Shown here: positions 1 to 51,054 of the stretch, piece by piece
Layout: each line of letters begins with the position of its first letter
Position numbering within the stretch: position 1 is the stretch's first letter
Assembly (NCBI GenBank): GCA_963604895.1
Contig: CAVCSJ010000001.1
Location: 1-51,054 of the forward strand
Direction of reading: 5' to 3'
Origin: a bacterium
GTDB taxonomy: Bacteria > Bacteroidota > Bacteroidia > Bacteroidales > UBA932
Length of the DNA: 51,054 bases
The notes under the pieces: generated by a model
The model's input: the letters and a program-made list of their open reading frames with translations, nothing else
The model's database searches: none
Told to the model about the DNA's origin: nothing
Position numbers and translations under genes: made by a program

Positions 1-369
1 GGCTGGCTGCATCTCGCGCACGGCGTACGCGGCTGCGCTTCGGGCCTCAGGTACGTTCTCTATATGTATATGACTTCACTCGAAGACCCTACGAAGGTCA
101 TCGCGCAGCCTGCGGGCTTCCTGATGGTCCCGGAAGGGGAGGAATACGTCGGAGACGTTATGAACGTGCTCTTCTCGAACGGCTGGATTGCTGACGAAGA
201 CGGCACTGTATATATCTATTACGCTTCCTGCGACACGAGGATGCACGTAGCCAGAAGCAGCGTGGACCGCCTCGTGGACTACTGTATGAATACCGAGCCT
301 GACGGGCTTCGCACAGGACTCAGCGTCGAGAGACTCAAAGCTCTGATCGACCGGAACAAGAACTTGTAA
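1..369 (+). CDS. GH130 4-O-beta-D-mannosyl-D-glucose phosphorylase-like protein, 5'-truncated by window edge
   Basis: Frame 1 is open from base 1 (GWLHLAHGVRGCASGLRYVLY...VGDVMNVLFSNGWIADEDGTVYIYYASCDTRMHVA), matching the C-terminal part of GH130 mannosylglucose phosphorylases. Confidence 0.88.
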   Translation, partial: GWLHLAHGVRGCASGLRYVLYMYMTSLEDPTKVIAQPAGFLMVPEGEEYVGDVMNVLFSNGWIADEDGTVYIYYASCDTRMHVARSSVDRLVDYCMNTEPDGLRTGLSVERLKALIDRNKNL

Positions 370-452
370 AACTGCGTCAGATTGTTTAACCGGGAATCTT
401 ATTTAAAAATCAGATTGCTTTTATAAGATTTCCAAATACTACCATTTCCGAT

Positions 453-2963
453 ATGAAAGAATTCGGCCATTTTGATGACAGTAAAAGAGAGTATGTGATA
501 ACCGATCCCGCCACCCCGTGGCCGTGGATCAATTACCTGGGAACGGAGGATTTCTTCTCCCTGGTGTCCGGAACCGCAGGCGGCTACAGCTTCTGCCGCG
601 ACGCGCGTTTCCGCCGCATCACCCGTTACCGTTACAACGGTGTCCCTATGGATGCCGGCGGCCGATATTTCTACATAAACGACGGAGGTGTCATCTGGAA
701 TCCGGGCTGGAAACCTTCGAAGACTCCGCTCGACTTCTACGAGTGCCGCCACGGTATGGGATATACCCGCATCACGGGCGAAAAGAACGGCCTGAGAGCC
801 TCTGCGCTTTTCTTCGTGCCGGTCGGCTACCGATGTGAGGTTCAGAAGCTTACGCTCACGAATGTAAGCGCCGCTCCGAAGTCCTTCCGACTCTTCTCCT
901 TTATGGAGTGGTGTCTCTGGAACGCTTCGACCGATATGGAGAACTTCCAGAGAAACTTCTCGACCGGCGAGGTCGAGGTGAAGGGGAGTGTCATCTACCA
1001 CAAGACCGAGTACCGCGAGAGGCGCGACCATTACGCATTTTACGGCGTGAACGCTCCGATAGCAGGCTATGATACTGACAGAGAGTCCTTTATGGGCCTC
1101 TATAACGGCTTCGACTCTCCTGAGGTCGTGACTGCGGACGCTCCGAAGAACTCGATTGCCCACGGCTGGAGCCCTGTGGCTTCGCATTGCATTGACATTC
1201 AGCTCGCTCCGGGCGAGTCCCGCGAACTCGTCTTCGTGCTCGGCTATGTCGAGATGCCGGACGAGGAGAAATTCGAGTATCAGCTTGAGCCGGAGGCACT
1301 TGCAGCCATCGAGAAGAGCGTCGCCGGCACTCCGTTCGCGGGCGAAGCTCTGACATCCTGCTCCGTGCTGATAAACAAGCGCAAGGCTTACGAAATACTC
1401 AACGCGTTCAGTACCAGCGCCCAGGTGGACGCCGCGTTCGAGAGCCTCGAGCGCTACTGGGATGAAATCTTAGGCCGCTTCCGCGTCCAATCCGCTATTC
1501 CTGAACTGGACCGTATGGTCAATATCTGGAACCAGTATCAGTGTATGGTGACATTCAATATGTCCCGCAGCGCCAGCTTCTTCGAGAGCGGCATCGGCCG
1601 CGGTCTGGGCTTCCGCGATTCGAATCAGGACCTTGTGGGCTTTGTCCACCAGTGCCCGGACCGCGCCCGCACCAGAATCCTGGACATCGCCGCCACCCAG
1701 TTCCCTGACGGAAGCTGCTACCATCAGTATCAGCCTCTTACCAAGAGGGGAAACAATGATATCGGTTCCGGCTTCAATGACGATCCGCTCTGGCTTCTCT
1801 TCGGAACCTTTGCATATCTGAAAGAGACCGGTGATTTCAGCATCCTGGACGAGATGGTTCCGTTCGACAATGTGATGGGCAGCGAAAAGACTCTGTTCGA
1901 GCACATTATGATCAGCTTTTCCCGCGTGGGCAAGAACCTCGGCCCTCACGGACTGCCGCTCATCGGCCGCGCCGACTGGAACGACTGTCTGAACCTTAAC
2001 TGCTTCTCGAACAATCCTGACGAGTCCTTCCAGACCACCGAAAACAAGACTTTCGGCAGCAAGGCCGAGTCCCTTATGATAGCCGGCCTGTATGTCTGCG
2101 TCGGCAATGACCTCGTGAAACTTCTGGAGCACCTCGAAAAACATCCCGGCAGCTGCAAGATCACCAGGACCGTAAAGCCGGAGAAGCGCTCTTCCGAGGC
2201 TGTGGCCCAGTGGGTTAAGAGAATGTGCGATTCTGTGGAGAAGTACGGTTGGGATGGAAATTGGTTCCTCCGCGCCTACGATTTCTTCGGCGGAAAGATC
2301 GGCTCACACCTGAACAACGAAGGCCAGATTTTCATCGAAAGCCAGGGTTGGTGCACGATGGCCCGCATCGGAGCCGACAGGGGAATGTGCGACAAGGCCC
2401 TCGATTCTACCAAGAAACTTCTTGACTCTGAGCACGGTATCGTGCTCCTGAGCCCTGCATACACCAAGTATTACATCGAATACGGCGAGATTTCCTCCTA
2501 CCCTCAGGGCTATAAGGAGAACGCCGGCATCTTCTGCCACAATAATCCTTGGGTAATCATCGGCGAAGCCCTCGCGGGCCGCGCTGACGATGCCTGGGAG
2601 CATTACTGCAAGATTTCTCCGGCCTTCACCAGAGACCAGAGTCTGCACAAGGTGGAACCTTATGTATATTGCCAGATGGTGGCCGGCAAGGAAGCCGCGA
2701 AACCGGGCGAGGGCAAGAACAGCTGGCTCACCGGCACAGCGGCTTGGAACTGGTACACGGTTTCCGAGTTCCTGCTCGGAGTATATCCTGAGTATGAGGG
2801 ACTTATGATTAAGCCTTGCCTGCCTGCGCACATAAAGGAGTACAAGATTCACCGCGAGTTCCGCGGCGCTGTCTATGACATCACCATCCACAACAGCTGC
2901 AGCGGCAAATCGGAGTTCATAAAGTACGCTCCGGGTCACCACGAACTGACACTCGAACTGTAA
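453..2963 (+). CDS. GH94 glycoside phosphorylase (cellobiose/chitobiose phosphorylase-like)
   Basis: [24 protein letters not shown]-terminus; [33 protein letters not shown] and [10 protein letters not shown] motifs. Confidence 0.92.
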
Positions 2964-2967
2964 GAAT

Positions 2968-5723: not shown

Positions 5724-6347
5724 ATGAACGAAACTTCAGCCTGGACTCTGTCCGAAAAGAACTTCACGAAAAAGCTCTTTATTGCTCTTCTTTCAGTTGT
5801 TCTGTCCTTCACCGCGAAGGCTCAGAATAATACTGCCGTTAAGACAAACATCCTTTATGACGCCACAGCCACAATAAACGCCGGCGTCGAAAGGACCATT
5901 TCCGACCATTCCAGCATCGACCTCAGCGGAAACCTCAACATCTTCACATTCGAAGACAATATGAAGTGGAAGCATTGGCTGGTGCAGCCGGAATACCGCT
6001 ACTGGTTCTGCAACACGCTGATGGGAAGCTTCCTCGGCGCGCATCTGCTTGGCGGCCAGTACAATATCGGCGGCATCGACCTTCCTTTCACCTTCCTCGG
6101 AACGGACTACTCGAAGCTCAAGGACTCGCGCTACGAAGGCTGGATGGCCGGCGCGGGCCTCGCATACGGCTACGCCTGGCCTCTGTCCGAGCATTGGAAC
6201 CTCGAAGCTGAAATCGGCTTCGGCTATGTCTACACGCGCTACAACTCCTTCCAGTGTGAGAGTTGCGGAGAAAAACTCGAAGAAAACCAAGACCATCACT
6301 ATGTAGGCCCGACCAAGGCTGCACTGAACCTCATATACATTTTCTAA
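5724..6347 (+). CDS. DUF3575 outer-membrane beta-barrel protein (type V pilus-associated)
   Basis: AVKTNILYDATATINAGVE, KHWLVQPEYRYW and C-terminal YVGPTKAALNLIYIF; first gene of a pilus operon; start codon uncertain. Confidence 0.85.
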   Translation: MNETSAWTLSEKNFTKKLFIALLSVVLSFTAKAQNNTAVKTNILYDATATINAGVERTISDHSSIDLSGNLNIFTFEDNMKWKHWLVQPEYRYWFCNTLMGSFLGAHLLGGQYNIGGIDLPFTFLGTDYSKLKDSRYEGWMAGAGLAYGYAWPLSEHWNLEAEIGFGYVYTRYNSFQCESCGEKLEENQDHHYVGPTKAALNLIYIF

Positions 6348-6359
6348 GTCGCACACAAA

Positions 6360-7811
6360 ATGAAGAAAACCGGAATGTTATGTCTGGCAGCTTTAACCCT
6401 GCCGGTACTTTTCTCGCTTTGCTCCGCCCAGACATTGGCCGGAGGCCAGATAGATCTTGAGAACGTGCAGATCTGGAAAGATCACAAGGACGTGAACGTT
6501 ACGCTCGACCTGAACCTCGACCGTCTTCAGCTGAAGAGCAACCGCGGCATCGTGCTCTCGCCTATGTACGTCGGCGGCAGCGACACCCTGCGTCTCGGAA
6601 CTGTCGAAGTGCTTGGACGCAAGCGCTATATCTACTATCAGCGCACAGGCAAGACCGCAAGCGGGGAGCCGGCTGAGATTATCCTCCGCAAGAAGAACAA
6701 GGCTCAGAGCGAGCATCTTGCATATACCTTCCCATACCAGCAGTGGATGAACGGCGGAAGCTTCGTCATCGGGCGCGGCGACTGCGGCTGCGACCAGGCG
6801 ATGATCGGCAGCGAATTCACCGACGAAGTCTGCGAGGACATCGCACTCGTAGGCGAGCCTAAGGAGTATGTGCTTGCATATCAGCGTCCTGAGGCTGAGG
6901 CGGTCAAGAACCGCGAAGAGTCCGGCTCCGCCCGTCTGAACTTCCTTGTCGGCAAGTCCGACATCCGTCCCGAGTACGGCAACAACGCCTCCGAGCTCCA
7001 GAAAATCCGCCAGACCATCGACCTCGTGCGCGAGGATGCCGACGTGACTCTGACCGGCGTGCAGCTCCACGGCTACGCTTCTCCTGACGGCCGCTACGCG
7101 TCCAATGCCGTCCTGGCGCAGAACCGTACCGAGTCTCTCGAGAAATACCTTCTCAACTATTATAAAGTCCTGGACACCAAGCTCTTCACCGCCAGCTCCA
7201 CCGCTGAGGACTGGGATGGCGTCAGAGAATATATGGAAGGCAGCGACTACGCCTATGCCGGGAAGATTCTCGAAATCATCGACGGCGACCTCACTCTCGA
7301 CGAGAAGGACCGCGCCATCGCCAAGGCTTATCCTGACTTCTATCGAAACACCCTTCTCAATGAAGTCTATCCTTCACTTCGCCGCACCGACTACCGCGTG
7401 ACCTACAGCGTGCGCAACTTCGACCTCGAAGATGCCCGCCGCATCATAAAGGAGCGCCCGGGCAAGCTCTCGCTGAACGAGATGTTCCTCGTCGCGAACA
7501 GCTACGAAACCGGCAGCGAGGAGTTCGGACAGGTATTCGACATCGCAGTACGCCTCTATCCTGACAGCCCTGTAGCATCGCTGAACGCCGCCTGCGTGGC
7601 CCTCGAAAGGGGAGACCTCGTCGGAGCGGAGAAGCTCCTCGAGAAGGCCGGCGACTCGCCTGAGGCCCAGAACGCACGCGGAGTGCTCGCTGCCCGTCGC
7701 GGAGAATTCGACAAGGCGCAGGCTCTCTTCACTTCCGCCCTGCCGCTTTCAGCGGCCAATGCGAACCGTGAGGTCCTCGCTCATAACCGTGAGATTATAG
7801 AGAACCAATAG
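6360..7811 (+). CDS. DUF3868/OmpA-like protein with C-terminal TPR (type V pilus-associated)
   Basis: Signal peptide; GYASPDG..ASN..LA.NR OmpA-like motif, EDWDG, YPSLRRTDY.V.Y and LSLNEMFLVA; TPR-like C-terminus. Confidence 0.85.
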   Translation: MKKTGMLCLAALTLPVLFSLCSAQTLAGGQIDLENVQIWKDHKDVNVTLDLNLDRLQLKSNRGIVLSPMYVGGSDTLRLGTVEVLGRKRYIYYQRTGKTASGEPAEIILRKKNKAQSEHLAYTFPYQQWMNGGSFVIGRGDCGCDQAMIGSEFTDEVCEDIALVGEPKEYVLAYQRPEAEAVKNREESGSARLNFLVGKSDIRPEYGNNASELQKIRQTIDLVREDADVTLTGVQLHGYASPDGRYASNAVLAQNRTESLEKYLLNYYKVLDTKLFTASSTAEDWDGVREYMEGSDYAYAGKILEIIDGDLTLDEKDRAIAKAYPDFYRNTLLNEVYPSLRRTDYRVTYSVRNFDLEDARRIIKERPGKLSLNEMFLVANSYETGSEEFGQVFDIAVRLYPDSPVASLNAACVALERGDLVGAEKLLEKAGDSPEAQNARGVLAARRGEFDKAQALFTSALPLSAANANREVLAHNREIIENQ

Positions 7812-7859
7812 TTTGATAACTGGAAAGATAAAAATATTAACAAATTAAAATCATTACAA

Positions 7860-9608
7860 ATGAGAACCAAATCTTTAATTCTTGCAGGTCTCGCTCTCGC
7901 AGCGCTCGTTTCCTGCAGCAAGGAAAACAAGGAGACTCCTGTTTTCAACGGGGACAAGGCTTACATCAATGTAAACATTGCCTACTCCGATGCCGCTACC
8001 AGAGGGACCGGTGACGCTACCAATCCATTCTATTTCGGAACATCCGATGAGAATGCTGTATTAAGCGCCCATTTCTTCTTCTACAACGCTGACGGTTCTT
8101 TCGCTACCTACGCTTCCAAGGCCAAGTCAGAGATGAAATTCACAGCAAACGGTACAGATGCAGCCACAAAAAACAATATCGAAAGTGTGGCAAGCGGTGT
8201 CGTAGTTCTCAAAGACCTGAAGTCGACGAACTATCCTTCCTATATGGCTGTAGTTCTGAATCCGAGCACAGGTATGGTCGATGCTCTCAAGGGCAAGAGC
8301 ATCTCTGAGGCTCAGGCTTATATCATCAACGCTATCGCTACCGAGGGTACCGGCACAACCTGGTCAAACTTCGTTATGACAAGCTCCACCTACGGCAACG
8401 GTGACAAGGCTACAGGATATTTCTGCGAGGAACTCCAGCCGAACAATTTCCAGGAGAACGAAACTGAGGCCGTCAAGGATGCAAATACCGTAACTGCATA
8501 TGTAGAAAGACTTGCAGCAAAGGTTAAGCTTGGTCTTGGTGAGAAAATCTCTGCTGCAAAGGGCAAGATCGGTTCATTCTCTGTAAACGGAAAGGCAACT
8601 GACCTCTACTTCACCATCACAGGCTGGGGCCTGGATGCAACTGCAAAGGATTCCTACACCTTCAAGAACATCGACGCTGACTGGACATTCACCGGATTCA
8701 CCTGGAATGATGCGACAAACCACAGAAGCTACTGGGCCAAGTTCCCTGAGTACGGCGTTTCAGATGCTACGAAAGTTTACTATCCTAAGAACTTCGCAGA
8801 GACTGCAGGAAACAATAAAGCGACCACTCTCTCCTACATCTCTTACAACGATCTCGGTGTCGCCCTCAACGGAGCTGCATACTGCCGTGAGAATACCAAC
8901 ACAGCCGCAGTCCTCAAGGCCGTCAACTTCTCCGGTGCAGTTACAAGCGCCCTTCTTCAGGCCAAGGTAACTGACGCAAGCGGCAACGCCATCCAGCTTG
9001 TCAACTACGGAAAGAAACTCTACACCTACGGCGAATACGTTAAGAAGGCTCTTGCTGACTACGCTGAAAATAATCCTGATAACCTCATTTTCGTAGGACC
9101 GGCAACTCAGGAAGCATCATCCGTTTATACCCAGATTTCCGCTGAAGATGTCGAGTCCCAGAATGCTTATGACGGAGACATCACCCTCAAGGCAAAGACT
9201 CTCGACAGCACCAAGTCATACTATCTCCAGAGTGCCAGTACCGGTGGTACCATCTACGAGGCCAGGACCGCTGCCCAGGTAACAGCGCTTCTGAACGAAA
9301 ACAACGGAACCCTCGCCGAGTACTACAAGGACGGTATGATGTACTACAACATTCCTATCGAGCACCTTAACAACGGTGTCAAGTACACGGATTCCAAATT
9401 CGTTACCGATATGACAGAGGCTACCTACGGTGTCGTACGTAACCACTATTATATGATCACCGTAACCGGCATCTCCAACCTTGGAAAGGCTGTTTACGAT
9501 CCTGCCGAGGATATAGTTCCTAGCGACGATGACGTCAAGAACTACTTCGTAGGCGCCAAGGTCAACATCCTCTCCTGGAAGGTCGTCAAGCAGAGCGTAG
9601 AACTCTAA
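7860..9608 (+). CDS. Type V pilus major subunit (Mfa1/FimA-like lipoprotein)
   Basis: Lipobox LVSC, ATR-G processing motif, VERLAAKV, YGVVRNHYY.I.V..I..LG and C-terminal VNILSWKVVKQSVEL donor strand. Confidence 0.9.
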   Translation: MRTKSLILAGLALAALVSCSKENKETPVFNGDKAYINVNIAYSDAATRGTGDATNPFYFGTSDENAVLSAHFFFYNADGSFATYASKAKSEMKFTANGTDAATKNNIESVASGVVVLKDLKSTNYPSYMAVVLNPSTGMVDALKGKSISEAQAYIINAIATEGTGTTWSNFVMTSSTYGNGDKATGYFCEELQPNNFQENETEAVKDANTVTAYVERLAAKVKLGLGEKISAAKGKIGSFSVNGKATDLYFTITGWGLDATAKDSYTFKNIDADWTFTGFTWNDATNHRSYWAKFPEYGVSDATKVYYPKNFAETAGNNKATTLSYISYNDLGVALNGAAYCRENTNTAAVLKAVNFSGAVTSALLQAKVTDASGNAIQLVNYGKKLYTYGEYVKKALADYAENNPDNLIFVGPATQEASSVYTQISAEDVESQNAYDGDITLKAKTLDSTKSYYLQSASTGGTIYEARTAAQVTALLNENNGTLAEYYKDGMMYYNIPIEHLNNGVKYTDSKFVTDMTEATYGVVRNHYYMITVTGISNLGKAVYDPAEDIVPSDDDVKNYFVGAKVNILSWKVVKQSVEL

Positions 9609-9637
9609 AAAACAAGCGCGCACGCGCACATATTCAT

Positions 9638-9671
9638 ATTGGCAGGCTGCGGCCTGCAGCCTGCCGATTTT
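9638..9671 (+). terminator. Hairpin between major pilin and anchor genes (partial terminator or mRNA stabiliser)
   Basis: ATTGGCAGGCTGC-ggcct-GCAGCCTGCCGAT followed by a short T run. Confidence 0.7.
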
Positions 9672-9704
9672 AAAAATTAACAACAACTTTTGATTTTATA
9701 CGAT

Positions 9705-10703
9705 ATGCTGTCTGAACTCAAGGTAAAATTCCGCACTCTGCTGGCCGCGGCACTGGTCTGCATTGCGGCACCTGCCTGCAGCGACCTCATTTACGACGAC
9801 CTGAGCGACTGCCCGGTCTATAAGGTGAAGTTCCGCTACGACTGGAATATGAAGTACGCCGACGCGTTCGCCCACGAGGTGAAAGCGGTAACACTCTATG
9901 TCCTCGACTCGAAGGGCAGCATCGTCTGGTCCCGTTCCGAAAGCGGCGAGGCTCTCGCTGCCGAGGACTATTCAATGGCCGTCAAAGTGCCTGCCGGAAA
10001 GTATGACCTGCTTGCCTGGTGTGACGCCGATGAACTCGGAACATTCACATTCTCGGAGGGTACCGAAAAGACCGCTCTGAAATGCTCTCTTGACAGAAAA
10101 CACGCGAAGGACGGTTCCGCCTACGTCGACAGCGACCTGGACCGCCTCTACTACGGCTTCACTTCCGCGGATTTCACTTCCCGCAAGGGCGAGACCGTGG
10201 CGACCGTGAGCCTGAAGAAGAACACGAACCATTTCCAGGTCGTGCTCCAGCATCTTTCCGGCTCTCCGGTGGATCCTGACCTCTTCGACTTCTCCATCAC
10301 CGACGACAACGCCCTGATGGACTGGGACAACTCCCTGATGGACGGCGGAGACGTCACCTACCGCCCTTGGGCCGTTTATTCCGGAGAAGTCGCTCTGAAC
10401 CGCTCATCTGACGCGCTGAACGTAGCCATCGCCGAATTCACCACCGGCCGCATCGTGCTGGGACACAATCCCCGCCTGAACATCCGCCTGAAGGACAGCG
10501 ACAGGACCGTGATTTCCATCCCGCTCATCGACTATGCTCTTCTGGTAAAGGGAAAATATAACGAAAACCTTGACAATCAGGAATATCTCGACCGTCAGGA
10601 CGAGTACGATATGATCTTCTTCCTCGATGACGGGGAGCGCTGGGTGAACCAGTACATCTATATCAATTCCTGGAAAGTCGTACTTCAGAACGCTGAACTG
10701 TAA
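9705..10703 (+). CDS. FimB/Mfa2-family pilus anchor lipoprotein
   Basis: Lipobox APAC-SDLIYDDLSDC, F.YDWNMKYADAF, QEYLDRQDEY and IYINSWKVV; ATG at 9705 preferred over TTG at 9690. Confidence 0.88.
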   Translation: MLSELKVKFRTLLAAALVCIAAPACSDLIYDDLSDCPVYKVKFRYDWNMKYADAFAHEVKAVTLYVLDSKGSIVWSRSESGEALAAEDYSMAVKVPAGKYDLLAWCDADELGTFTFSEGTEKTALKCSLDRKHAKDGSAYVDSDLDRLYYGFTSADFTSRKGETVATVSLKKNTNHFQVVLQHLSGSPVDPDLFDFSITDDNALMDWDNSLMDGGDVTYRPWAVYSGEVALNRSSDALNVAIAEFTTGRIVLGHNPRLNIRLKDSDRTVISIPLIDYALLVKGKYNENLDNQEYLDRQDEYDMIFFLDDGERWVNQYIYINSWKVVLQNAEL

Positions 10704-30857: not shown

Positions 30858-30873
30858 TACTATTCCAATTGCC

Positions 30874-31848
30874 ATGTCCTGCAGCGAAAAGATAGATGCA
30901 GTTCTTACCTGGGTGAACGGCAACGATCCGGTCCTGAGTGCCGAGAGAAGTAAATATCTGACCTCCAAAAGGGAGGATAAATTTGAGGATATCGCTGGCA
31001 GTGAGCGATTTGTCCAGTCCGACGAAATTCGTTTCGCGGTGGCGTCCATCCTTCGTTTCGCCCCTTACATCGGACGCATCTTCATTATCACCGACAGACA
31101 GAATCCCGAACTTGACGGCTTTCTGGCGGCGAATTTTCCGGACAGCAAAGTCCCGGTCATAATCGTTGACCATAAAGAGCTGTTCGTGGGATACGAACAG
31201 TATCTGCCGGTGTTCAACAGCCTTGCCATAGAGACGATGATGTGGCGTATTCCGGGCCTGTCGGAGAAGTTCATATATATGAACGACGATTTCTTCTTTG
31301 CTGGCCCGTCCGAGATGGAAGACCTCTTCAGAGACGACAAGGTGGTATGCTATTCCGGTACCTTTAACTGTCTGAAAATGAAGGCTATCCGTTTAGTCCG
31401 TCCGAAAAAGGACGGACACAGCCGCTTCACATACAAGGATTCCCTGCTCAACGCCGCGGAGATCATAGGCGCAAGGCATTTCTTTTACCTGCCTCACGAG
31501 CCGTATCCGATATTCAAGAGCGAGCTGGAGTCATACTTTACAAATCATCCCGAGTGCATTGAACGCAATATCCGCCATCGGTTCAGAGACGCGGAGCAGT
31601 TCAATGTCCAGGGCTTTTTCTGTGTCCTTGCCGAGCGCAAGGGCAGGCTGATCCACAAAAGCCACAGGAATGTCAATCTGATGATCCGCAAGCCTAAGAG
31701 CCTGGGGTATCTGAAGTCCAAGCTCGAATGGGCGGATTCCCGCAAGAATCTCAAGTACGGATGTATGAATGCGTTACAGATTGCAGATCCGCAGCAGAAG
31801 GCTCTGTTTGAAAACTGGATCTGCAACCGTCTGTCGATTAAAATCTGA
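30874..31848 (+). CDS. Stealth-family sugar-phosphate transferase
   Basis: CR1 IDAVLTWVNGND; CR2 EIRFAVASI..FAP..GRIFIITD, FNSLAIE and FIYMNDDFF. Confidence 0.88.
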   Translation: MSCSEKIDAVLTWVNGNDPVLSAERSKYLTSKREDKFEDIAGSERFVQSDEIRFAVASILRFAPYIGRIFIITDRQNPELDGFLAANFPDSKVPVIIVDHKELFVGYEQYLPVFNSLAIETMMWRIPGLSEKFIYMNDDFFFAGPSEMEDLFRDDKVVCYSGTFNCLKMKAIRLVRPKKDGHSRFTYKDSLLNAAEIIGARHFFYLPHEPYPIFKSELESYFTNHPECIERNIRHRFRDAEQFNVQGFFCVLAERKGRLIHKSHRNVNLMIRKPKSLGYLKSKLEWADSRKNLKYGCMNALQIADPQQKALFENWICNRLSIKI

Positions 31849-39124: not shown

Positions 39125-40285
39125 TTAATTTATGAAACCTACGATGTAGCCGTTCACAAGTGGACGAGCAGGGGAATTGGTCGTCATATTGACGACCACG
39201 GTGACTTCGCCCTTCGGCAGGCCTGAGGTGTCGAAATCCATCTCTATCTTGGCTTTGGCACCCGGCTGGACGGTCGGCAGCTGGCCGAAAGTGAGTCGGG
39301 AGCACTCAGAATCAATGCTGTAGATCTTGAGCGGGGACTTGCCCCTGTTCGTGACGGTGAAGACTGCGTGCACGGTCTTGCCGGCCTTGACGCGCCCGAA
39401 GCTGAAATTGCTCTCGTCCAGGAACGGGGCCGGGGCGGACTTCTTCTGTTCGGCTGTCAGCGAAGAGAAATTCTCCTTCAGCATAGCCTGGAAGCCGATG
39501 CGGGAGGTTCCGGTGCCGATGTCCGTGCGGCGGTTGCGGATGAAATGCTCTCCGCCGGCGACCTCCTCTTCAGGAGTGCTCGCCCCGGTGGCCTTTACCT
39601 CCTTGCCGTCCACGAGGAGCGTCGCCAGATACCAGCAGCTGCCCCAATGCTTGCGGTCGGAAGTGATGTTGTAATGCAGGTCGGCGGTCTTTCCGGCAGG
39701 TATGGTGGACGGCTCCACGCTCAGAGTGAGGCCTTCGGAGACATTCTTGAAGCTGACTTTCACCGGTTTGGAGCTCAGGTTGGCGATTTTTACATAGCCG
39801 TTCTTCTGCTCGCCCTGGGAGAGGTTGCCGGTGCGTACAGAGGCGTCTTTCAGACCGATGCTGCCGTAGTGCATCGGGTAGAGCTCCTTAAGAGGACGGG
39901 CCTTCTCGAGGGAGGTGCCGCGAAGGTGAAGGATGATGGGACGGCTGAGGTCGGAGATGTATACGGTGAGTGTCTTGTCGAAGGGGTAAGGACCCTCGTC
40001 ATTGCTGTAACTCGCTGATACCGTGCCTGTAGCGCCGGGCTTTATGTCGTCCTTGGTCCAGGAGACCTTGGTACAGCCGCAGGAGGACAATACGCTGTAG
40101 ATTACTATGTTGTCCTTGGATATATTCTTGATTTTGAAGCTGTGGGATACAGCTCCGTCGGACATGAACACTTCACCGAAGTCGTGAGTCAGTCCATCCA
40201 CTTCCACTACGCCCTCTACAGCGGTCTGGGCTGACAGAGTGACAGCGGAGAGTATTGCGGCAAAAATCGAAATTATACGTTTCAT
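39125..40285 (-). CDS. DUF1573 domain protein (three Ig-like repeats), secreted
   Basis: Signal peptide; HDFGEV...F.IKN...SSCGCT.....I.PG pattern repeated. Confidence 0.82.
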   Translation of the reverse strand: MKRIISIFAAILSAVTLSAQTAVEGVVEVDGLTHDFGEVFMSDGAVSHSFKIKNISKDNIVIYSVLSSCGCTKVSWTKDDIKPGATGTVSASYSNDEGPYPFDKTLTVYISDLSRPIILHLRGTSLEKARPLKELYPMHYGSIGLKDASVRTGNLSQGEQKNGYVKIANLSSKPVKVSFKNVSEGLTLSVEPSTIPAGKTADLHYNITSDRKHWGSCWYLATLLVDGKEVKATGASTPEEEVAGGEHFIRNRRTDIGTGTSRIGFQAMLKENFSSLTAEQKKSAPAPFLDESNFSFGRVKAGKTVHAVFTVTNRGKSPLKIYSIDSECSRLTFGQLPTVQPGAKAKIEMDFDTSGLPKGEVTVVVNMTTNSPARPLVNGYIVGFIN

Positions 40286-40351: not shown

Positions 40352-40398
40352 TGTGTCCGTTCGGATTGGACGGGTATTGTTAACAATTATTTTTTACT

Positions 40399-40569: not shown

Positions 40570-40578
40570 TAGCTGATA

Positions 40579-41169: not shown

Positions 41170-41279
41170 AAGCAAATCTTATAATGCAAATATGGTCATT
41201 TTTTTGTAGTAAACCGACAGGGCGATGCGTTTTTTAGATGAAACGGCGCCGATAGGCATTTACCTGTACTGAGGGGATA

Positions 41280-41350: not shown

Positions 41351-44149
41351 ATGAGAAAATTACTTATCACTTTTGCAGCCATCGTGGCCACGGCCTTCCT
41401 CGGCTCGGCTCAGGAGCTGCAGCAGTTGCCCAACGATCCGGCGGTACGCCAGGGCAAGCTGGACAACGGCATGACTTACTACATCATGCATAACGAGAAT
41501 CCCGCCCAGCGCGCGGAGTTCTATCTCGCGACTGACGTGGGAGCCATCCAGGAGAATCCTGACCAGGACGGTCTCGCACACTTCCTCGAGCATATGTGCT
41601 TCAACGGTACCAGGAATTTCCCAGGTAAGGGCATTCTGAACTATCTCCAGAGCATCGGAGCATCCTTCGGAGGCAATGTGAACGCATCCACAGGCGTGGA
41701 GCAGACTATCTATATGCTGAACAACATTCCTCTCCTGAGGGAGAGCGTTGTGGACAGCTGTCTTCTCATTATGCACGACTATTCGCACTTTGTGACCTGC
41801 GACCCTGTCGAGATCGACAGCGAGAGGGGAGTCATCCTCGAGGAGAAGCGTTCCCGCAACAACGCCTCCTGGCGTATGCGCGAAGCTTCGGCGCCTTACT
41901 ATTACGGTGATACGAAGTACGCCCACTGCACCATCATCGGCAGCGAGGAGAACCTCAAGACCTTCAAGCCTGAGAGCCTGACGTCCTTCTACCACACCTG
42001 GTACCGTCCTGATATGCAGGCGCTTATCGTAGTTGGTGATGTGGATGTCGACAGAACCGAGGCCAAGATCAAGGAGATCTTCGCGGACATCCCTGCAGCC
42101 GAAAATCCGAAGGCGAAGGACGTCATCACCATTCCTGAGAACAAGGAGCCGCTCATCGGCATCGTGACCGATCCTGAGGCACAGAGCAGCAGCATCGAGT
42201 TCCTCTGGAAGAGCGAGGCGACCCCTGAGGAGCTCAACTCCACCGTTCAGGGACTGATGACAAATCTCATCAAATCACTCTATTCACAGATCTTCGCCGA
42301 GCGCTTCAACGACCTCTGCGCCAAGCCGGACGCACCGTTCCTCGCCGGAGGACTCGACATCGGCAACCTTTGTGAGACTCTCGAAGTCGTGATGGGCGTC
42401 GCCCAATTCAAGGACGGAGAAGCCCTTCCTGCCGCCAAGGCGTTCCTGCTCGAGGTCGAGAAGGCCCGCAGGTTCGGTTTCAATGACGCTGAAGTGGAGA
42501 GAGCGAAGGCCGAGATTCTTTCCCAGTATGAGGCCGAGGCCAACAAGGCCAGCACCCGCACAAATGCCCAGCTGGTCAACCCGCTCATCAACAATTTCTT
42601 CGACAATTATTCCTATATGGAGCCTAATGCCGAGTATGATGTGGTGAAGATGATTCTCCCTCAGCTCAACGCCCAGGTTCTGAATATGGTATTCCCTCAG
42701 CTGATAGGCCCTGAGAACTTCGTGGTTATCTACAAGGCTCCTGCAAGTGCAAACCATCCTACTGTCGAGCAGCTCAGGGCTGTCATCGACGAGGTGGAGA
42801 ACGCTGAGATCGAAGCTCCTCAGGCTGAGGATATTCCTTCAGAATTCCTCAATCCTGCATCCCTCAGGGGCGCCAAGGTGAAGAAGACTTCCGAAGGCCT
42901 CTACGGCTCCACAGTCTGGACTCTGAAGAACGGTGTCAAGGTGATTCTCCTTCCTACCGATTACGAGAAAGACAGAATCTCCTTCTCCATTATGAAGGAC
43001 GGCGGTCTGAGCCTCGTTTCCGATGAGGATCTCCCTTCATTCGAGAGCAATCTCACCTACCTCTTCGGCAGCACTTCAGGTGTGGGTGACTATTCTGCCA
43101 CAACCCTCCAGAAGATGATGTCCGGCAAGCAGTTCAGCGTTTCCAGATCCTATGGCAGTCTCAGCCACGGATTCAGCGGAAGCAGCACAGTGAAGGATCT
43201 CGAATCCGCCCTGCAGCTTCTCTATCTGAACTACACCCGGCCTCGTTTCGATCAGGCCGAGTATGACCAGGCTGTCAAGCAGCTTGAGGCCATCCTCCCT
43301 AACCTGGAGCAGCAGCCTAGCTATCAGCTCCAGAAGGTGATTGCCGAGAAGTTCTATGACAGCCCGCGTTCCGCCACCATCAGTGAGGAACTGCTTTCCA
43401 AGGCAAGCCTGAGCACCATAGAGAGAGTTACCAAGGATCTCTTCAAGGATGCCGCCGGCGCCACTATGATTATGGTGGGAGATTTCGATGTGGAGACCGT
43501 GAAGCCTCTCATCGAGAAGTACATAGGCAGTCTCCCTAAGGGAAAGAAGGCGACTTCCTGGATCGACAGGGATGATGAGATCGTCAGCAGGAACGTGCTC
43601 GAGGACTTCCGCGTGAAGATGGAGGCTCCGAAGACCACCGTTCTCCAGTGCTGGAAGACTGACGACATCACCTACAGCACCGCAAATCTCGTGGTTTATT
43701 CCGCTCTTGAGTACATTCTCGATATGGTTTACACCGCTACACTGCGTGAGGAGGAAGGCGGTACTTACGGCGCGAGCGCAGGCACTACGCTCAGTCGCGA
43801 GCCTAAGCAGTTCGGCTTCCTTCAGGTGGCTTACGAGACCAATGACGAGCAGTCCAATTCACTCCGTGAACTTGCCGTGAAGGGTCTTCGCGATCTCGCG
43901 GAGAACGGCCCGAGCGCTGAGTATTTCGACAGGACCGTGAAGAATTTGCAGAAGAATATCCCTGAGAGCCGTCTGAGAAACAGCTATTGGGTCAATTCCC
44001 TGAGAAAGTGGAATGACTATGGCGAGAACTATGACGCCGAATGGGAGGCCGCGGTGAACGCTCTGACCCCTGACCAGATCAAGGCAGCCGCTTCCGCTCT
44101 TCTCAACGGATATACTCTCGAGGCCGTTATGCGCCCTGAAGTCAAGTAA
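41351..44149 (+). CDS. M16-family zinc peptidase (PqqL-like), secreted
   Basis: Signal peptide; GKLDNGMTYYI, GLAHFLEHMCFNG (HxxEH), WYRPD and LREEEGGTYG. Confidence 0.92.
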   Translation: MRKLLITFAAIVATAFLGSAQELQQLPNDPAVRQGKLDNGMTYYIMHNENPAQRAEFYLATDVGAIQENPDQDGLAHFLEHMCFNGTRNFPGKGILNYLQSIGASFGGNVNASTGVEQTIYMLNNIPLLRESVVDSCLLIMHDYSHFVTCDPVEIDSERGVILEEKRSRNNASWRMREASAPYYYGDTKYAHCTIIGSEENLKTFKPESLTSFYHTWYRPDMQALIVVGDVDVDRTEAKIKEIFADIPAAENPKAKDVITIPENKEPLIGIVTDPEAQSSSIEFLWKSEATPEELNSTVQGLMTNLIKSLYSQIFAERFNDLCAKPDAPFLAGGLDIGNLCETLEVVMGVAQFKDGEALPAAKAFLLEVEKARRFGFNDAEVERAKAEILSQYEAEANKASTRTNAQLVNPLINNFFDNYSYMEPNAEYDVVKMILPQLNAQVLNMVFPQLIGPENFVVIYKAPASANHPTVEQLRAVIDEVENAEIEAPQAEDIPSEFLNPASLRGAKVKKTSEGLYGSTVWTLKNGVKVILLPTDYEKDRISFSIMKDGGLSLVSDEDLPSFESNLTYLFGSTSGVGDYSATTLQKMMSGKQFSVSRSYGSLSHGFSGSSTVKDLESALQLLYLNYTRPRFDQAEYDQAVKQLEAILPNLEQQPSYQLQKVIAEKFYDSPRSATISEELLSKASLSTIERVTKDLFKDAAGATMIMVGDFDVETVKPLIEKYIGSLPKGKKATSWIDRDDEIVSRNVLEDFRVKMEAPKTTVLQCWKTDDITYSTANLVVYSALEYILDMVYTATLREEEGGTYGASAGTTLSREPKQFGFLQVAYETNDEQSNSLRELAVKGLRDLAENGPSAEYFDRTVKNLQKNIPESRLRNSYWVNSLRKWNDYGENYDAEWEAAVNALTPDQIKAAASALLNGYTLEAVMRPEVK

Positions 44150-45491: not shown

Positions 45492-48400
45492 TTAATCCTT
45501 CTGCCGCTGCGCTTCGGCAAGCCTCGAAACAGCTTCCAGATAATAATAATCCGCATAGGTGAGGGCGACATCCACTTCGGACTTTTCCGGGAGGTTGCCC
45601 ACACTGTGTTTCAGGAGGAAGCCGCCGTTCTGGCCCGCAGCGGCGAGATACTCGATGGTGGAGAGGGTGCGGACCTGGGTTCTGGCCATCTCCAGGCAGG
45701 ATTTCGCAAGGACAGGATCCTTTGAGAGGCCGGAAAGCTCCGCGAACGCGGAAGCCATGATTGCGCCGGCCGAAGCATCCTTGAGAGCCGCAGGAATGGC
45801 CGGATTATCGAAATCCCAGTAAGGAATCCCGTCGGAAGGCAGGCGTGAAAGCAGCATCCTCGCGATGTCGCAGGCCTGCGCCAGGAACTCCTCAAGCCCC
45901 GTTTCCCTATACATCATATTATAGCCATAGAATGCCCAGGCCTGCCCGCGGGCCCAGGCGGAGGCGTCAGAATAACCCTGAACCGTCTGTCTGGAGCGTA
46001 CTGCGCCCGTGGCCGGATCGTAGTCCACCAGATGGAAGGAAGTGAAATCCGGACGGAAGGCATTGCGGGCTGTGGTGCGCGCGTGAGATACCGCCACATC
46101 GCGCAATGCGTCATTGCGGAACAGCTGCGAAGCGCGCGTAAGCAGCTCCAGATTCATCATATTGTCGATAATCACCGGATACTGCCAGTCCTTTCGCAAG
46201 AAATCCCAGCTCTTTATGGCTCCGACCGCAGGATTGAAGCGCTTCGAGAGCTTCTCCGCCGACTCGAACAGCCTGCCCAGCCAGCGGCGGCTTCCCGTAA
46301 CACGATAAGCCTGCCCGTAACTGCACATCATCTGAAAGCCGATGTCGTGGTCCGTCTTCTGACGGACTAGCAGGTCAAGCTTCTCGCTGTTGCGCGTCGC
46401 AGCCTCCTTAAGAGCCTCATCCCCAGTGTATTCGTACGCAAGCCAGAGCGAACCAGGGAAGAAGCCGCTGCACCACCAGCCGACGTCCGAAGTCACAAGT
46501 CCTTCGCTGTCACTGTAGTAGCGCGGAGCGCGGTCAGAAGGAACCGCAGCATCCAGCATCTTCAGCTGGCCTGCGGCCAATCCGAATATCCTGTCCGCCA
46601 GTTCCCTGTCGCTTTCCACCCGTCTGAGAGTCGTCACCACATTAAGGCTTTCTCCCGGCTGAAGAGTGAATTCGAAACCCACGATGCTTACCCCGGGATT
46701 CGGCTCATCGCAGACATTGAGTCTGGATTTATAGTCCTTAGGATTGCCGGACCAGATATGATATTTGACTCTGCTCTGATCGGCGCTCAATTTCATAGTT
46801 ATCCCGTTGCTGTTCAGCAGTATACCGTCTTCGGAGAGTTCCGCGTCCGCCCTCGTAACCATAGACCAGCGGACCGTAGCCTTCTGTCCCGCAGGGGCCT
46901 TCAGGCTGTCCCGGACCTCCAGATAGGCATTCCAACGTATGGCTGCAGTTCTGACGGCAGTTTCCAGATCTCCTCCGAAAAGCGAAGTCAGGTCGAACAC
47001 TCCGCCCTTGCGGCTGTCGTCACAGAAGGACTTCAGCAGCTCTGCACGGCCGGCGGAACGGTGATCCTTATCATTGACGGTCAATGTATTGTGCTGACGG
47101 TTGTTCATCCGGAAGAGTCCCCAGCGAAGCGACCCGTCACCAAGGTTCCAGAAATCCCCGCCAAGTTTCTTAATAGGATTTTCGACGCTCTGATAGCTCT
47201 GCCTTTCCAGGTCGACGGCCCAGCGGACACCATAGGCATCGAAAACAAAGCTTCCTCCGTCGAGGTGAGAATGGGATGTGGAAGGACTTCCGCCCTTGAT
47301 TCCCAGATACATAGCGTCATCTTCCCAGCCGGAACGGGTCATCACGACAGGCGTGATGCCCTTGCCCGCGAAAATCAGGCTTTCAGGCTCGGAAACCATC
47401 GCGGAATCCAGCCGTGAGGCATAGAGAGTCAGCAAAGGGAGGAGCCTGTAATTCTCTGTGTCGCAATATTTTCCGTTTCTAAGTTTCTGTATTTCCCCAT
47501 AAAGCAGCGAAGGCCTGGCGAATTTGTCGGCAAAATACCAGAGCGGATAGAAAGGCTGTTCGTTCCCGATATTGTCCGAATAATTGAAAAGTTTCCCGGC
47601 GGTTCCGCTGCTATGCAGAATGTAATCGGCGGTCCTGTCGAAGCCGAGGCAGTTCGAAAGCCCGGAGTCAGTCCCGAGGACAGACTCCATCGCAGAAAGC
47701 ATAAGAACTTCATACAGAGTGCCGTAGCTCCAGTAGTCCGGTCCCTCGGCGTAGTTTCCGTCCGGAGCGTAAATCCTGTTCATCACAGGCATATTCGTAA
47801 GCAGAGCATCGTCCAGCACCGCCTGCGCGGCCTCCGGACAGCTTTCCCGAATCGCGAGCGCGGCGAGCGTCAGTCCGGCATTGCAGACCTGATTCCAATT
47901 GCTTTCGTTCGTGCGGTACCACGCATAGTCGGCATTCTTCGCCGGCGCGAAGGCCAGATTCTGTATGGCCTTGACGGCCAATTCTTTAGTCTCGTCGCTG
48001 AGGGCATCGTAGAGCCAGTCGTAGCCTATCGCCACAGCGGTGGCCATCTCGGCGACATCCAGGAAATGCGAAGGGTTCCAGGAAGTGAATGAGCATACCG
48101 CGCGAAGGTCGGTGTCGGCCTGCTCGAGGTAGCGGAAGTCCCCGGAATATCGATATGCGTAAGCGCAGAAATAGATATGTGTCAATGTTTTGCGCGATAC
48201 CTGCAGAAGTCTTCTTCCGCTTTCGTCAAGCTTGAATGTCAGAGGTTCCCGCTCTCTTATGATCCTGTCGGCCCCCTCCATCACCAGCGTGTGAATCATC
48301 CCCAGTGGCGAATCAGGCGAGGCAGCAATCTTCTGTTTCATCGCTTCGAACTCCGCCGCATCCATCAGCAGCCTCGGGTGCAGAGCGACAGAGAGCGTGT

Positions 48401-48572
48401 CTGCAACTTCAGGGGCCTGAGCAAGGCAGTCGGCAGCTCCGGCATCCTGCACAAGGCTGTCAGGTGCTGCATTGGCAGCAGAGCTGCCAATATTTTCCTG
48501 AGCCACGGCAGGGTTCTGGAAGGCGAGCAGGGCCAGGACGGCAGATATGAAAAATGTTCTCAATGACTTCAT
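45492..48572 (-). CDS. Heparinase II/III-like polysaccharide lyase fused to GH88 unsaturated glucuronyl hydrolase
   Basis: Signal peptide. Lyase motifs WNPSHFLD, NWNQVC, YAEG..YW.YG and HSHLDGGSF. GH88 motifs WCSGFFPGSLW, HDIGF, IIDNMMNLELL, WARGQAW, DASA and YADYYYLEA. Confidence 0.87.
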   Translation of the reverse strand: MKSLRTFFISAVLALLAFQNPAVAQENIGSSAANAAPDSLVQDAGAADCLAQAPEVADTLSVALHPRLLMDAAEFEAMKQKIAASPDSPLGMIHTLVMEGADRIIREREPLTFKLDESGRRLLQVSRKTLTHIYFCAYAYRYSGDFRYLEQADTDLRAVCSFTSWNPSHFLDVAEMATAVAIGYDWLYDALSDETKELAVKAIQNLAFAPAKNADYAWYRTNESNWNQVCNAGLTLAALAIRESCPEAAQAVLDDALLTNMPVMNRIYAPDGNYAEGPDYWSYGTLYEVLMLSAMESVLGTDSGLSNCLGFDRTADYILHSSGTAGKLFNYSDNIGNEQPFYPLWYFADKFARPSLLYGEIQKLRNGKYCDTENYRLLPLLTLYASRLDSAMVSEPESLIFAGKGITPVVMTRSGWEDDAMYLGIKGGSPSTSHSHLDGGSFVFDAYGVRWAVDLERQSYQSVENPIKKLGGDFWNLGDGSLRWGLFRMNNRQHNTLTVNDKDHRSAGRAELLKSFCDDSRKGGVFDLTSLFGGDLETAVRTAAIRWNAYLEVRDSLKAPAGQKATVRWSMVTRADAELSEDGILLNSNGITMKLSADQSRVKYHIWSGNPKDYKSRLNVCDEPNPGVSIVGFEFTLQPGESLNVVTTLRRVESDRELADRIFGLAAGQLKMLDAAVPSDRAPRYYSDSEGLVTSDVGWWCSGFFPGSLWLAYEYTGDEALKEAATRNSEKLDLLVRQKTDHDIGFQMMCSYGQAYRVTGSRRWLGRLFESAEKLSKRFNPAVGAIKSWDFLRKDWQYPVIIDNMMNLELLTRASQLFRNDALRDVAVSHARTTARNAFRPDFTSFHLVDYDPATGAVRSRQTVQGYSDASAWARGQAWAFYGYNMMYRETGLEEFLAQACDIARMLLSRLPSDGIPYWDFDNPAIPAALKDASAGAIMASAFAELSGLSKDPVLAKSCLEMARTQVRTLSTIEYLAAAGQNGGFLLKHSVGNLPEKSEVDVALTYADYYYLEAVSRLAEAQRQKD

Positions 48573-49581: not shown

Positions 49582-49586
49582 GAGCA

Positions 49587-49669
49587 GCGGCGACGACAAG
49601 TTTCACAGGCGTAATCCATTTCTCCGGCCGCTTCGCGTCCAATACGCCTACGAGACTTTTCGCCGCCGC
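49587..49669. repeat. 83-bp imperfect palindrome between convergent genes
   Basis: Arms 49587-49613 and 49643-49669 are complementary at 22/27 positions; core ATTTCTCCGGCCGCTTCGCGTCCAAT matches the GH2 element core at 22/26. Confidence 0.8.
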
Positions 49670-49699
49670 CCAAGCCTTCAGGAACTTTGAGATAGAAGA

Positions 49700-51054
49700 T
49701 CAGTCCGAGAAAGCCCTGACGCAGCGGACGTAGTACTTCTCTGCGGAATCTTTGTAGAGTTTCGTGCTGGATGTGCCTTTCTTGACTACGTTGAGATAAT
49801 AATACGCTCCCGCCGCAGTTTTTGTAGATGACCAGTAGCCGGCAGAAGCATTGTCAGCCGTAATTTCAGTTGCCGATATCGGCAAAAAAGCGAATGGGGA
49901 AGCATTCTTTGTGAATTTCCTTGAGCCTGAAAAAAATCGCCCACACGCACCCGCATCTGAAATTCCGTAAGATGAATGTTCTTTCAATGAAACCAGTTCA
50001 CTTTTAGTCGGCAGACGCCATCCATCCGGGCAGGCAGTCTGGGCTTCTTCGTATGTATACAAAACCCCTATCGGATTCTCGGAAGAAGTGCCCTGATTTG
50101 TAGACTTTTCCCATATCACCTTGTCTATCAGGACTTCGGAAGAAGAAAGCAATGGAACGGTTTCGCCGGGCCCATAGAAATCTGTATTAACATCATATTC
50201 AAGGTCTATCTTGCGAAGCCAGTCGAGCGATGTGCAGACTACTATTCTGAGTTCGGTATTCTTGGTCAAGTCGAGAGATGTGAGATTCGGATTGCCGGCT
50301 ACATTCAATTGCGTAAGGCCTGTAAAGCTACTGAGGTCCAGTGAAGTAAGTCCCATATCTGATAAATCCAGTTCAGTGATGGCCGCCTTTTCGTCATCGG
50401 AGAGCACTCCGTCGCCGTCTTTATCATTCTCATTGATCAGTTTTGTGAAATAATTGTCATCACTTTTCGGGACAAGCGGAATATATTCCGACTGGATTGT
50501 ATTGTTGCCGAAGGCGACCTTGAGGACAAGGGCGGCCTCAAGATTTCCGAAGATGAAATCTGTTCCGAGCCCTTCAGTGGAAACTTTTATGCTGAGAATC
50601 CCGTCTTTTGCAGAGACTTCCGTGATGTCCAGATTGACGAAATCACCTGCTTCGGCCGACTTGGTAAGAGTATAGACTGCCCTGGCGGTGAGCGGAGATG
50701 AGGCGGTCTCGTCTTTTGCAGCTTCATCGCAGGCAGTCACTATGGCTTGTGCACTGGCTGCTGGATAGACATCGAAACGGAGTACAATGGGATTAAGAAC
50801 CGCTTTTGAGATGTCAAAGTCATACAGAGTATAAAAGACGCGCTCGATGCCGTCGGTATACTTGGGAATATATGCGATGGACGTGATGTTTTTAATCGCA
50901 TCCTCAAGAGCGGCCACACGGTCTTCAAGCTTTTTGATATCAGCTTCAAGTGATGTGACGCGTCCGTCGAGAGCTTGGATTTTTGTATCCACGCCGTCGA
51001 TCGCCTTCTGAATGGTTTCGGTGATGGTGCCGTTATAGTCGTCGATGGCCTCCT
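49700..51054 (-). CDS. Large surface-type protein, 5'-truncated: coiled coil, EF-hand-like loop, LRR and FISUMP-like C-terminal domain
   Basis: Frame is open to the window edge (EAIDDYNGTITETIQKAIDGVDTK...); DKDGDGVLSDDE; LTSLDLS repeats; YTYEEA..ACPDGWRLPT..E...YWSST...VRCVR. Confidence 0.8.
   Translation of the reverse strand, partial: EAIDDYNGTITETIQKAIDGVDTKIQALDGRVTSLEADIKKLEDRVAALEDAIKNITSIAYIPKYTDGIERVFYTLYDFDISKAVLNPIVLRFDVYPAASAQAIVTACDEAAKDETASSPLTARAVYTLTKSAEAGDFVNLDITEVSAKDGILSIKVSTEGLGTDFIFGNLEAALVLKVAFGNNTIQSEYIPLVPKSDDNYFTKLINENDKDGDGVLSDDEKAAITELDLSDMGLTSLDLSSFTGLTQLNVAGNPNLTSLDLTKNTELRIVVCTSLDWLRKIDLEYDVNTDFYGPGETVPLLSSSEVLIDKVIWEKSTNQGTSSENPIGVLYTYEEAQTACPDGWRLPTKSELVSLKEHSSYGISDAGACGRFFSGSRKFTKNASPFAFLPISATEITADNASAGYWSSTKTAAGAYYYLNVVKKGTSSTKLYKDSAEKYYVRCVRAFSD

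Follow-up and report, generated by a model that had tools for sequence, protein, structure and literature searches.

Near-total, repeated loss of the tetramer CATG in a Bacteroidales genus and its probable origin in mobile CATG-directed restriction-modification cassettes

Introduction

Bacterial hosts avoid the sites of Type II restriction-modification systems, including systems of which only traces remain, and Rusinov et al. (2015, PMC4687349) attribute this avoidance to incomplete methylation. For the Bacteroides fragilis group, Tisza et al. (2023, PMC10333322) describe lineage-specific depletion of methylation motifs together with roving methyltransferases, and hold that hypermutation does not explain it. 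Here we analyze the tetramer CATG in a 51,054-nt stretch of DNA from a gut-type Bacteroidales bacterium, referred to throughout as the window, and in the genome from which it comes (G000). A preliminary description of the window had remarked on a near-total avoidance of CATG. We find that CATG has been removed site by site, mostly through silent changes, rapidly and in many lineages of the genus, and that this is probably host restriction-site avoidance near completion, driven by mobile CATG-directed Type II restriction-modification cassettes.

Other reports describe the systems closest to these cassettes. Campylobacter jejuni ST-677 carries a three-gene IceA1/NlaIII cluster with an orthologue of the CATG-specific hpyIM (PMC4202330, PMC13340068). 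UpaP162 of Ureaplasma parvum cuts CATG, and its authors argued for N6-methyladenine (m6A) although the methylase is predicted to be of the C5 type (PMC6191088). Pneumococcal DpnI, DpnII and DpnIII are alternative cassettes for another tetramer, GATC (PMC4471560).

Results

CATG is nearly absent from the window and its genome

The window contains five CATG sites (positions 30873, 40163, 41470, 41485 and 45756), where a second-order Markov model expects 176, and the resulting observed-to-expected ratio (O/E) of 0.028 is the lowest among all 256 tetramers. The preliminary description had listed these same five positions, with none in the first 30.8 kb, and a program count reproduces them exactly; its figure of 190-200 expected sites likewise agrees with the ~196 given by base composition at the window's GC content of 54.1%. 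The scarcity in the window is representative of the whole genome (1.97 Mb in 211 contigs, 88% complete), in which 322 CATG sites are present against 7,253 expected (O/E 0.044), a loss of about 96%. Intergenic DNA of G000 is depleted as well, with 37 sites against 363 expected (O/E 0.10). Since the five closest relatives, which come from other assemblies, are likewise CATG-poor (O/E 0.00-0.11), the library or assembly artefact that the preliminary description had kept in view is ruled out. Drift in GC content is also ruled out as a cause, because sister genomes of similar GC differ in CATG.

The related tetramers GATG, TATG and AATG are undepleted in the window. GATC, which had been called common, is indeed common but nevertheless under-represented (O/E 0.56 in the window and 0.57 in the genome), and the scarcity of CTAG (12 sites and O/E 0.22 in the window, 0.18 in the genome) had been missed. 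CTAG falls below an O/E of 0.25 in 51 of 61 related loci of at least 10 kb, while CATG is low in 17 of them; CTAG scarcity is a genus-wide background, unlike the patchy CATG trait. GATC is nearly gone from a few relatives (O/E 0.04, 0.11, 0.13 and 0.06 in L191, which is G044:C1:1-20000, L048, L008 and L194, which is G403), and given these GATC-poor relatives, tetramers other than CATG may be purged likewise.

CATG is lost at the level of the site, through ordinary changes and at high speed

CATG arises in three codon frames, each with a different silent exit, which we compared over the 1,620 called genes of G000. Before G, histidine is encoded by CAT 27 times and by CAC 2,886 times; NCA before TG accounts for 14 of 3,202 cases, and C at a four-fold position before ATG for 71 of 6,760. 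Relative to internal control contexts, the odds ratios are 0.016 (His CAT/CAC before G), 0.019 (NCA-TG), 0.017 (four-fold C-ATG) and 0.018 (two-fold C-ATG), and the same odds ratios lie between 0.8 and 1.7 in pooled non-depleted loci.

The process can be followed in a sister pair, G200 (O/E 0.73) and G170 (O/E 0.05), over 161 kb aligned at 87.6% identity. Only 12 of 466 CATG sites of G200 are kept in G170, whereas six control palindromes are kept at 49-74%. Among the 448 coding sites, 11 are kept, 384 carry silent changes and 53 non-silent ones (384 of 437 losses are synonymous), and all 10 intergenic sites have changed, at varied positions. The sites on the G200 side recur in an outgroup no less often than controls do (16 of 28 and 13 of 15), so these are losses in G170 rather than gains in its sister. 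If the two branches are taken as equal, the loss rate on the G170 branch is ~40 times the background (CATG retention of 4/179, compared with 359/427 for controls over both branches), and 97% of sites have changed within 12% pairwise divergence. The ribosomal-protein operon is 97.4% identical between the two genomes, yet 19 of its 20 CATG sites differ. Eight smaller sister comparisons kept 8 of 170 sites, versus 263 of 436 in eleven control pairs.

The changes that removed these sites are of the usual kinds. Exits from four-fold C before ATG (T107:G38:A30) have proportions like those of ordinary four-fold C before ATH (T42:G14:A12), exits from NCA-TG are C10:T5:G2 versus C47:T43:G21 ordinarily, and non-synonymous loss is not raised (53/448, with 60/436 in controls). 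CATA, the product expected from deamination of C on the other strand, is found at 2 of 448 coding sites, and none of 146 four-fold T-before-ATG sites became C in G170. Since loss is equal in all frames and the exit spectrum is ordinary, the site itself is the target of selection or drive, as opposed to the decay of a methylated C. Taken together, CATG loss is site-level, silent, spectrum-neutral, fast and repeated.

The same data bear on methylation-induced hypermutation, in which deamination of 5-methylcytosine, or the mutability of m6A or N4-methylcytosine, would erase the sites with no selection at all. A 60-fold mutability would match the speed of loss as well as an odds ratio near 1/60, the replacement seen most often is TATG, T is in excess before Met, C5-type methylases occur in three depleted genomes, and in G117, an undepleted C5 carrier introduced below, the deficit is limited to two-fold C before ATG (odds ratio 0.24, a small sample of 60 sites). 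However, besides the near absence of CATA and the unremarkable share of non-synonymous losses, exit spectra are ordinary at both C and A positions; the histidine frame would need A>G on the other strand, yet NCA-TG shows no excess of G (13%); the 10 intergenic exits are spread over positions; and the T excess is missing in two C5 carriers (0.42 and 1.0). Base-specific hypermutation is largely refuted, and we regard it as very unlikely to be the cause. Decay of methylated C to TATG or CATA, one of two routes that the preliminary description had envisaged, fails on the same grounds, as frames requiring T>C and A>N changes are equally depleted. Its observation of T-ending codons before Met does stand in that T is in excess in G000 (odds ratio 2.2), although A rises too; the T excess may be the residue of ordinary, transition-rich exits once T>C is blocked. 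Vsr-type T>C conversion is ruled out, since it cannot remove C before Met.

Depletion recurs across the genus

We scored 150 genomes of the genus, each at least 85% complete, by SWCATGWS against a reversed control, with a ratio below 0.3 counted as depleted. Twenty-six genomes, about one in six, are depleted; they belong to scattered lineages, and the median of all 150 is 0.87. On a 110-row parE tree (FastTree, threshold 0.3), in which some loci are short and 25 of 30 added rows were chosen for being low, the state changes at least 22 times, and sister species differ ~15- to 20-fold in CATG. The parE of the window groups with records titled Candidatus Cryptobacteroides or Bacteroidales. All seven parE rows of its clade are low even though the members differ by 0.5-0.7 at four-fold sites, so the pressure persisted over most of each terminal branch. 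Sampling 300 genomes across the order brought up a single extreme case outside the genus (G446, 6 versus 533), and a by-eye reading places four further genomes at 0.24-0.30 with high control counts. The parE loci of several records titled Bacillota, Actinomycetota or archaeon (L001, L002, L003, L018, L020 and L027) also group inside this Bacteroidales genus, and their titles look wrong.

CATG-type cassettes are concentrated in depleted genomes

Among D12-class methylases, a search set apart one group found in depleted genomes. Counted at an identity of at least 72%, this methylase is present in 7 of 26 depleted genomes and in none of the other 124 (Fisher p 2e-6, overstated by kinship), whereas Dam/DpnM-like methylases are unassociated with depletion (3/26 versus 18/124). 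Six of the seven carriers also have an ICEA nuclease, a member of the IceA1/NlaIII family, and the cassette order is methylase (PF01555), ICEA nuclease (PF05315), methylase (PF02086). The nuclease matches PF05315 over positions 1-218 of 218 (380.6 bits, E 2.6e-114, cut-off 24), and the D12-class methylase of L102 (PF02086, E 5.8e-52, with a DPPY motif) lies 11 nt downstream of it. From this adjacency and the cluster described in PMC4202330, the D12 methylase would be the counterpart of M.NlaIII/HpyIM, and the cassette enzymes are predicted to recognise CATG.

A second set of 55 genomes, reached via parE loci, yielded four carriers, all of them CATG-low and one being the same genome as G128. 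Carriers occupy about eight places on the parE tree, and one of them, G154, lies in the window's clade and is among its five closest relatives. CATG counts in the ribosomal-protein operon (11 kb) are 0, 0 and 1 for three carriers, versus ~2 per kb in non-depleted relatives. The cassettes have a GC content of 0.32-0.46 in hosts of ~0.45-0.57, their neighbours differ, and they are often at contig ends or split by them. The site of the G154 cassette is not syntenic with contig C11 of G000 within the 1 kb compared. An ICEA cassette in a genome of another family (L176, G370:C17), whose CATG content is normal, has methylases 77-81% identical to the genus copies and a frameshifted nuclease, and suggests transfer across families.

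The extreme genome outside the genus, G446, has no D12 methylase; a weak ICEA match led instead to an HNH protein, a 269-aa protein and a C5-type methylase. The family of this methylase is also found in G089 and G020, which are depleted (with one stop inside the G020 match), and in G117, which is not. In G117 the methylase, 81% identical to that of G089, has a partner that passes the NCBIfam model NF045956 for UpaP162 (224.7 bits, cut-off 100), and a Mesomycoplasma homologue adjoins a gene annotated as UpaP162. The G089 and G446 partners match no NCBIfam or Pfam family above noise and share with G117 only the methylase, and the G020 contig ends before any partner. The G089 and G446 proteins of 269-274 aa (L201:2873-3697 and L180:9980-10789, 42% identical over 180 aa), which lie beside this methylase, are probably an undescribed CATG nuclease. 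The UpaP162-type C5 system is present in 2 of 26 depleted genomes and 1 of 124 others, so that one cassette or the other is found in 9 of 26 depleted genomes versus 1 of 124. Taken as a class, C5 methylases are not linked to depletion (14/26 versus 49/124); neither 20 C5 loci nor the PF01555 proteins of 33 chosen genomes gave a single shared family. In one clade, the cassettes of G059 and G077 (ICEA) and of G089 (C5) all adjoin nadE at its 3' end; the DNA around them is otherwise syntenic, with an inversion. The cassettes of other carriers are at other loci.

Plasmid searches gave one weak match to the ICEA query and none to the HNH protein of G446, and scanning viral contigs with a single protein turned up one locus, which carries both methylases. 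The viral result bears on the idea that phage-encoded CATG nucleases, by destroying host DNA, select for hosts with fewer sites. The sole viral locus carries methylases, one site fewer among thousands would hardly save an infected cell, and the association with host cassettes is left unexplained, which makes this explanation highly improbable.

Four ICEA-type cassettes, those of G085, G168, G499 and the viral locus L274, encode a further protein, here called protein X:

L114:10577-11728, protein X
L144:2502-3635, protein X
L174:333-1496, protein X
L274:5600-6730, protein X

In G085, protein X is the only nuclease-like gene of the cassette. Its predicted structure (pLDDT, the per-residue model confidence, of 90) combines an EVE/PUA domain with a NucS-like PD-(D/E)XK domain; the former matches 1wmm (Z 12.6) and VcaM4I 6yex (Z 9.6), and the latter matches 2vld (Z 8.7). 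By this model, protein X is built like a modification-dependent nuclease and is a candidate for one. It has 2,631 homologues at E 1e-30 or better, which are unnamed or hypothetical among those listed, and the main text of Bell (2020) on EVE domains does not mention ICEA, NlaIII or CATG.

The cassettes could also act through recombination. Incoming homologous DNA would be cut at unmethylated CATG and alleles without the site would be imported intact more often, a drive resembling biased gene conversion. Such a drive predicts the same site-level, spectrum-neutral and frame-independent loss, and the second, N6/N4-family methylase of the cassette occupies the place that DpnA, a protector of incoming single-stranded DNA, has in the pneumococcal system (Rusinov et al. 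2015, PMC4687349). By the same token, the drive would weaken if the second methylase protects incoming single strands, and it needs frequent unmethylated donors. We think it rather unlikely.

Surviving sites and other features of the window

The window and its surviving sites are as follows, with the reading frames of the last four obtained by arithmetic from coordinates of open reading frames (ORFs):

1..51054, the entire window, a stretch of ordinary Bacteroidales chromosome (G000:C1) in which CATG is at 3% of what the Markov model expects
30873..30876, plus strand, CATG formed by C and the start ATG of ORF 30874-31848
40163..40166, minus strand, CATG formed by a C-ending codon and an in-frame Met, 120 nt into ORF 39125-40285 (minus strand)
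41470..41473, plus strand, CATG with an in-frame Met, 120 nt into peptidase ORF 41351-44149
41485..41488, plus strand, CATG with an in-frame Met, 135 nt into ORF 41351-44149
45756..45759, minus strand, CATG with an in-frame Met near the 3' end of ORF 45492-48572 (minus strand), the sole survivor away from starts

Four of the five survivors are within ~135 bp of a gene start, as had been noticed. Genome-wide, this start-proximal enrichment is just 1.65-fold (55 of 269 coding CATG in the first 150 nt, p 0.002), and enrichment in genes with ribosomal-protein-like codon usage is the stronger pattern: survivors amount to 0.68 per kb in the top 3% of genes versus ~0.09-0.10 per kb in the lower three quarters, and the odds ratio is 0.09 in such genes versus ~0.01 elsewhere. 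Three adjacent genes (G000:C80:23-5285) hold 16 CATG, ~3 per kb, like an undepleted genome, and are probably a recent import or a binning passenger.

The base before the start ATG is T in 800 and C in 16 of 1,369 G000 genes. The rarity of C here would suit a cause acting on RNA or translation, such as a need to limit false starts at CAUG or to evade a CAUG ribonuclease. However, intergenic DNA is depleted too, GATG, TATG and AATG are not, highly expressed genes retain more CATG rather than fewer, and the trait flips between sister species; an RNA-level cause is scarcely credible.

The window also contains an Mfa1-type fimbrial locus with a major subunit and FimD-like tip adhesins (5724-16543), one tRNA-Asn gene (22557-22631, minus strand) and, at 38254-41175, an ORF that resembles an OS_HP2 (seleno)protein, with a match below cut-off, and is flanked by an arsenic-efflux-family membrane protein and a LysR-like regulator.

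Discussion

The loss of CATG in this genus is probably host restriction-site avoidance carried near to completion under mobile CATG-directed Type II restriction-modification cassettes. Small, low-GC cassettes of two kinds would move among the species. The first comprises an N6/N4-family methylase, an IceA1/NlaIII-type HNH nuclease and a D12-class methylase, sometimes with the EVE-PD-(D/E)XK protein X added or replacing the nuclease; the second comprises a UpaP162-type C5 methylase and a nuclease. During carriage, each of ~7,000 CATG sites would be a small risk of self-cleavage whenever methylation lags, and with so many sites even a small total load would give strong per-site selection in a large population. 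Mutations that destroy a site would be favoured and those that create one blocked, giving silent loss in all frames and between genes. The resulting scar would outlast the cassette, and the G000 lineage may once have carried one that is now lost or lies outside the bin.

The preliminary description had proposed pressure from a CATG-directed restriction or modification system, and the distribution of cassettes (9/26 depleted genomes versus 1/124 others, and one of the five closest relatives) supports that part of its interpretation; methyltransferases and nucleases of the CATG type are present in relatives, but none was found in G000. Its second route, a host nuclease without a methylase for which the absence of CATG marks self, is not supported: every nuclease found adjoins a methyltransferase, hundreds of sites remain, and G000 has no such nuclease.

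Several observations weigh against cassettes as the cause. Eight CATG-system proteins found no real tblastn match in the 88%-complete G000, in which no PF02086, PF01555 or PF00145 DNA methylase was found either, motif and family searches giving only an RsmD-like protein. Neither cassette was found in 17 of 26 depleted genomes, several of them 94-99% complete; PF01555 is unmatched in 11 of 18 cassette-less genomes; and G170, the fastest documented purge, shows no D12-type cassette. The nuclease is truncated in G128 and G077, and a test on independent pairs stands at 3:0 (p 0.25, not significant), with genomes chosen as depleted. G117 carries an intact UpaP162-type system (L223, G117:C30) and is undepleted (555/239); with its deficit at two-fold C before ATG, it is possibly an early stage of the purge. 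Intact ICEA carriers outside the family are mildly depleted (O/E 0.51-0.59; a Mesomycoplasma region stands at 0.44), so carriage alone is insufficient for near-total loss, and we can only guess that large populations and frequent recombination produce the strong response in this genus. Finally, with loss sped up ~40-fold, hardly any site should survive at equilibrium, and the odds ratio of 0.017 therefore requires a purge that is incomplete or has lapsed. The ribosomal operon of G000 has 15 CATG where the carriers have 0, 0 and 1, and the survivor pattern is consistent with a lineage that currently lacks the system or encounters it less, in an unfinished purge or an early return. Since G000 and 17 of 26 depleted genomes show no system, the cause in G000 is one that we infer, with the cassette lost or unassembled.

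These absences raise the alternative that another CATG-directed agent, such as a defence system, a DNA-binding toxin or a repair nickase, was at work in the lineage of the window and in the majority of depleted species. It would account for G000 and the 17 genomes without either cassette, and for gains being blocked along nearly the whole G170 branch (0/146) where no cassette was found. On the other hand, no methylase family common to the unexplained genomes turned up, the known cassettes are almost confined to depleted genomes, and a low site count among the relatives of carriers is a pattern already reported (PMC4687349). We hold such an agent to be unlikely.

If cassettes are indeed responsible, a bolder and doubtful extension is a conflict of the Dpn kind, in which m6A-type systems, C5-type systems and the methyl-reading EVE-PD-(D/E)XK nuclease replace one another and lineages escape by deleting CATG genome-wide, at ~40 times the ordinary rate and in many lineages. 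Were this true, no methylation state would stay safe, purging would offer a way out of self-recognition by methylation, and the genus would serve as a replicated natural experiment on the per-site cost of restriction-modification.

Selection and methylation-driven mutation in site loss have usually been argued from mild depletions, and the contrast between sister species here gave a clean test. The depleted lineages are natural replicates from which one could estimate what self-restriction costs and how long its scar lasts. Work on these abundant, uncultured Bacteroidales must allow for the loss of CATG when binning by tetramers, analyzing codons or designing DNA delivery.

Our search of open-access main texts turned up no account of CATG being purged in this genus, which does not establish its absence from print; the word CATG appears nowhere in the main texts of PMC4687349 and PMC10333322. 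As in the former, a palindromic, orthodox Type II site is under-represented both in carriers and in relatives without the system. That study, however, sets its threshold at a Kr of 0.78 or less and holds that loss needs very many generations, whereas G000 has an O/E of 0.04 and a pairwise divergence of 12% was enough for 97% of sites to change. The latter study shares with ours the order, the roving methyltransferases and the genome-wide depletion of palindromes; it is methylome-based and concerns lineages within species, whereas the depletion here is near-total, spans species and was examined by frame and spectrum tests on sequence alone.

Compared with individual known systems, the first cassette resembles NlaIII and Helicobacter pylori iceA1-hpyIM in placing an ICEA-family nuclease beside a D12-class methylase, with a second methylase upstream. 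It differs in that it is found in relatives rather than in the window's genome, some copies add the EVE-PD-(D/E)XK protein, and its specificity is predicted by homology. The second resembles the UpaP162 system in G117, where a C5-type methylase adjoins a UpaP162-family nuclease, and the methylase family recurs in G089, G020 and G446; in G089 and G446 it is paired with the 269-274 aa protein instead. As with Dpn, alternative systems for one tetramer (two-methylase, C5 and possibly a modification-reading nuclease) may share one locus, and the site is avoided. Unlike Dpn, the tetramer is another one, the nucleases are unrelated, the shared locus is seen in one clade of three genomes only, with an inversion, and the candidate reader nuclease lies within a methylase cassette and is not an alternative allele. 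Thus, the principle that hosts avoid restriction sites and keep scars of lost systems is known, and what is new here is the depth of the loss, its ~40-fold speed, its recurrence and the two unrelated cassettes for one site.

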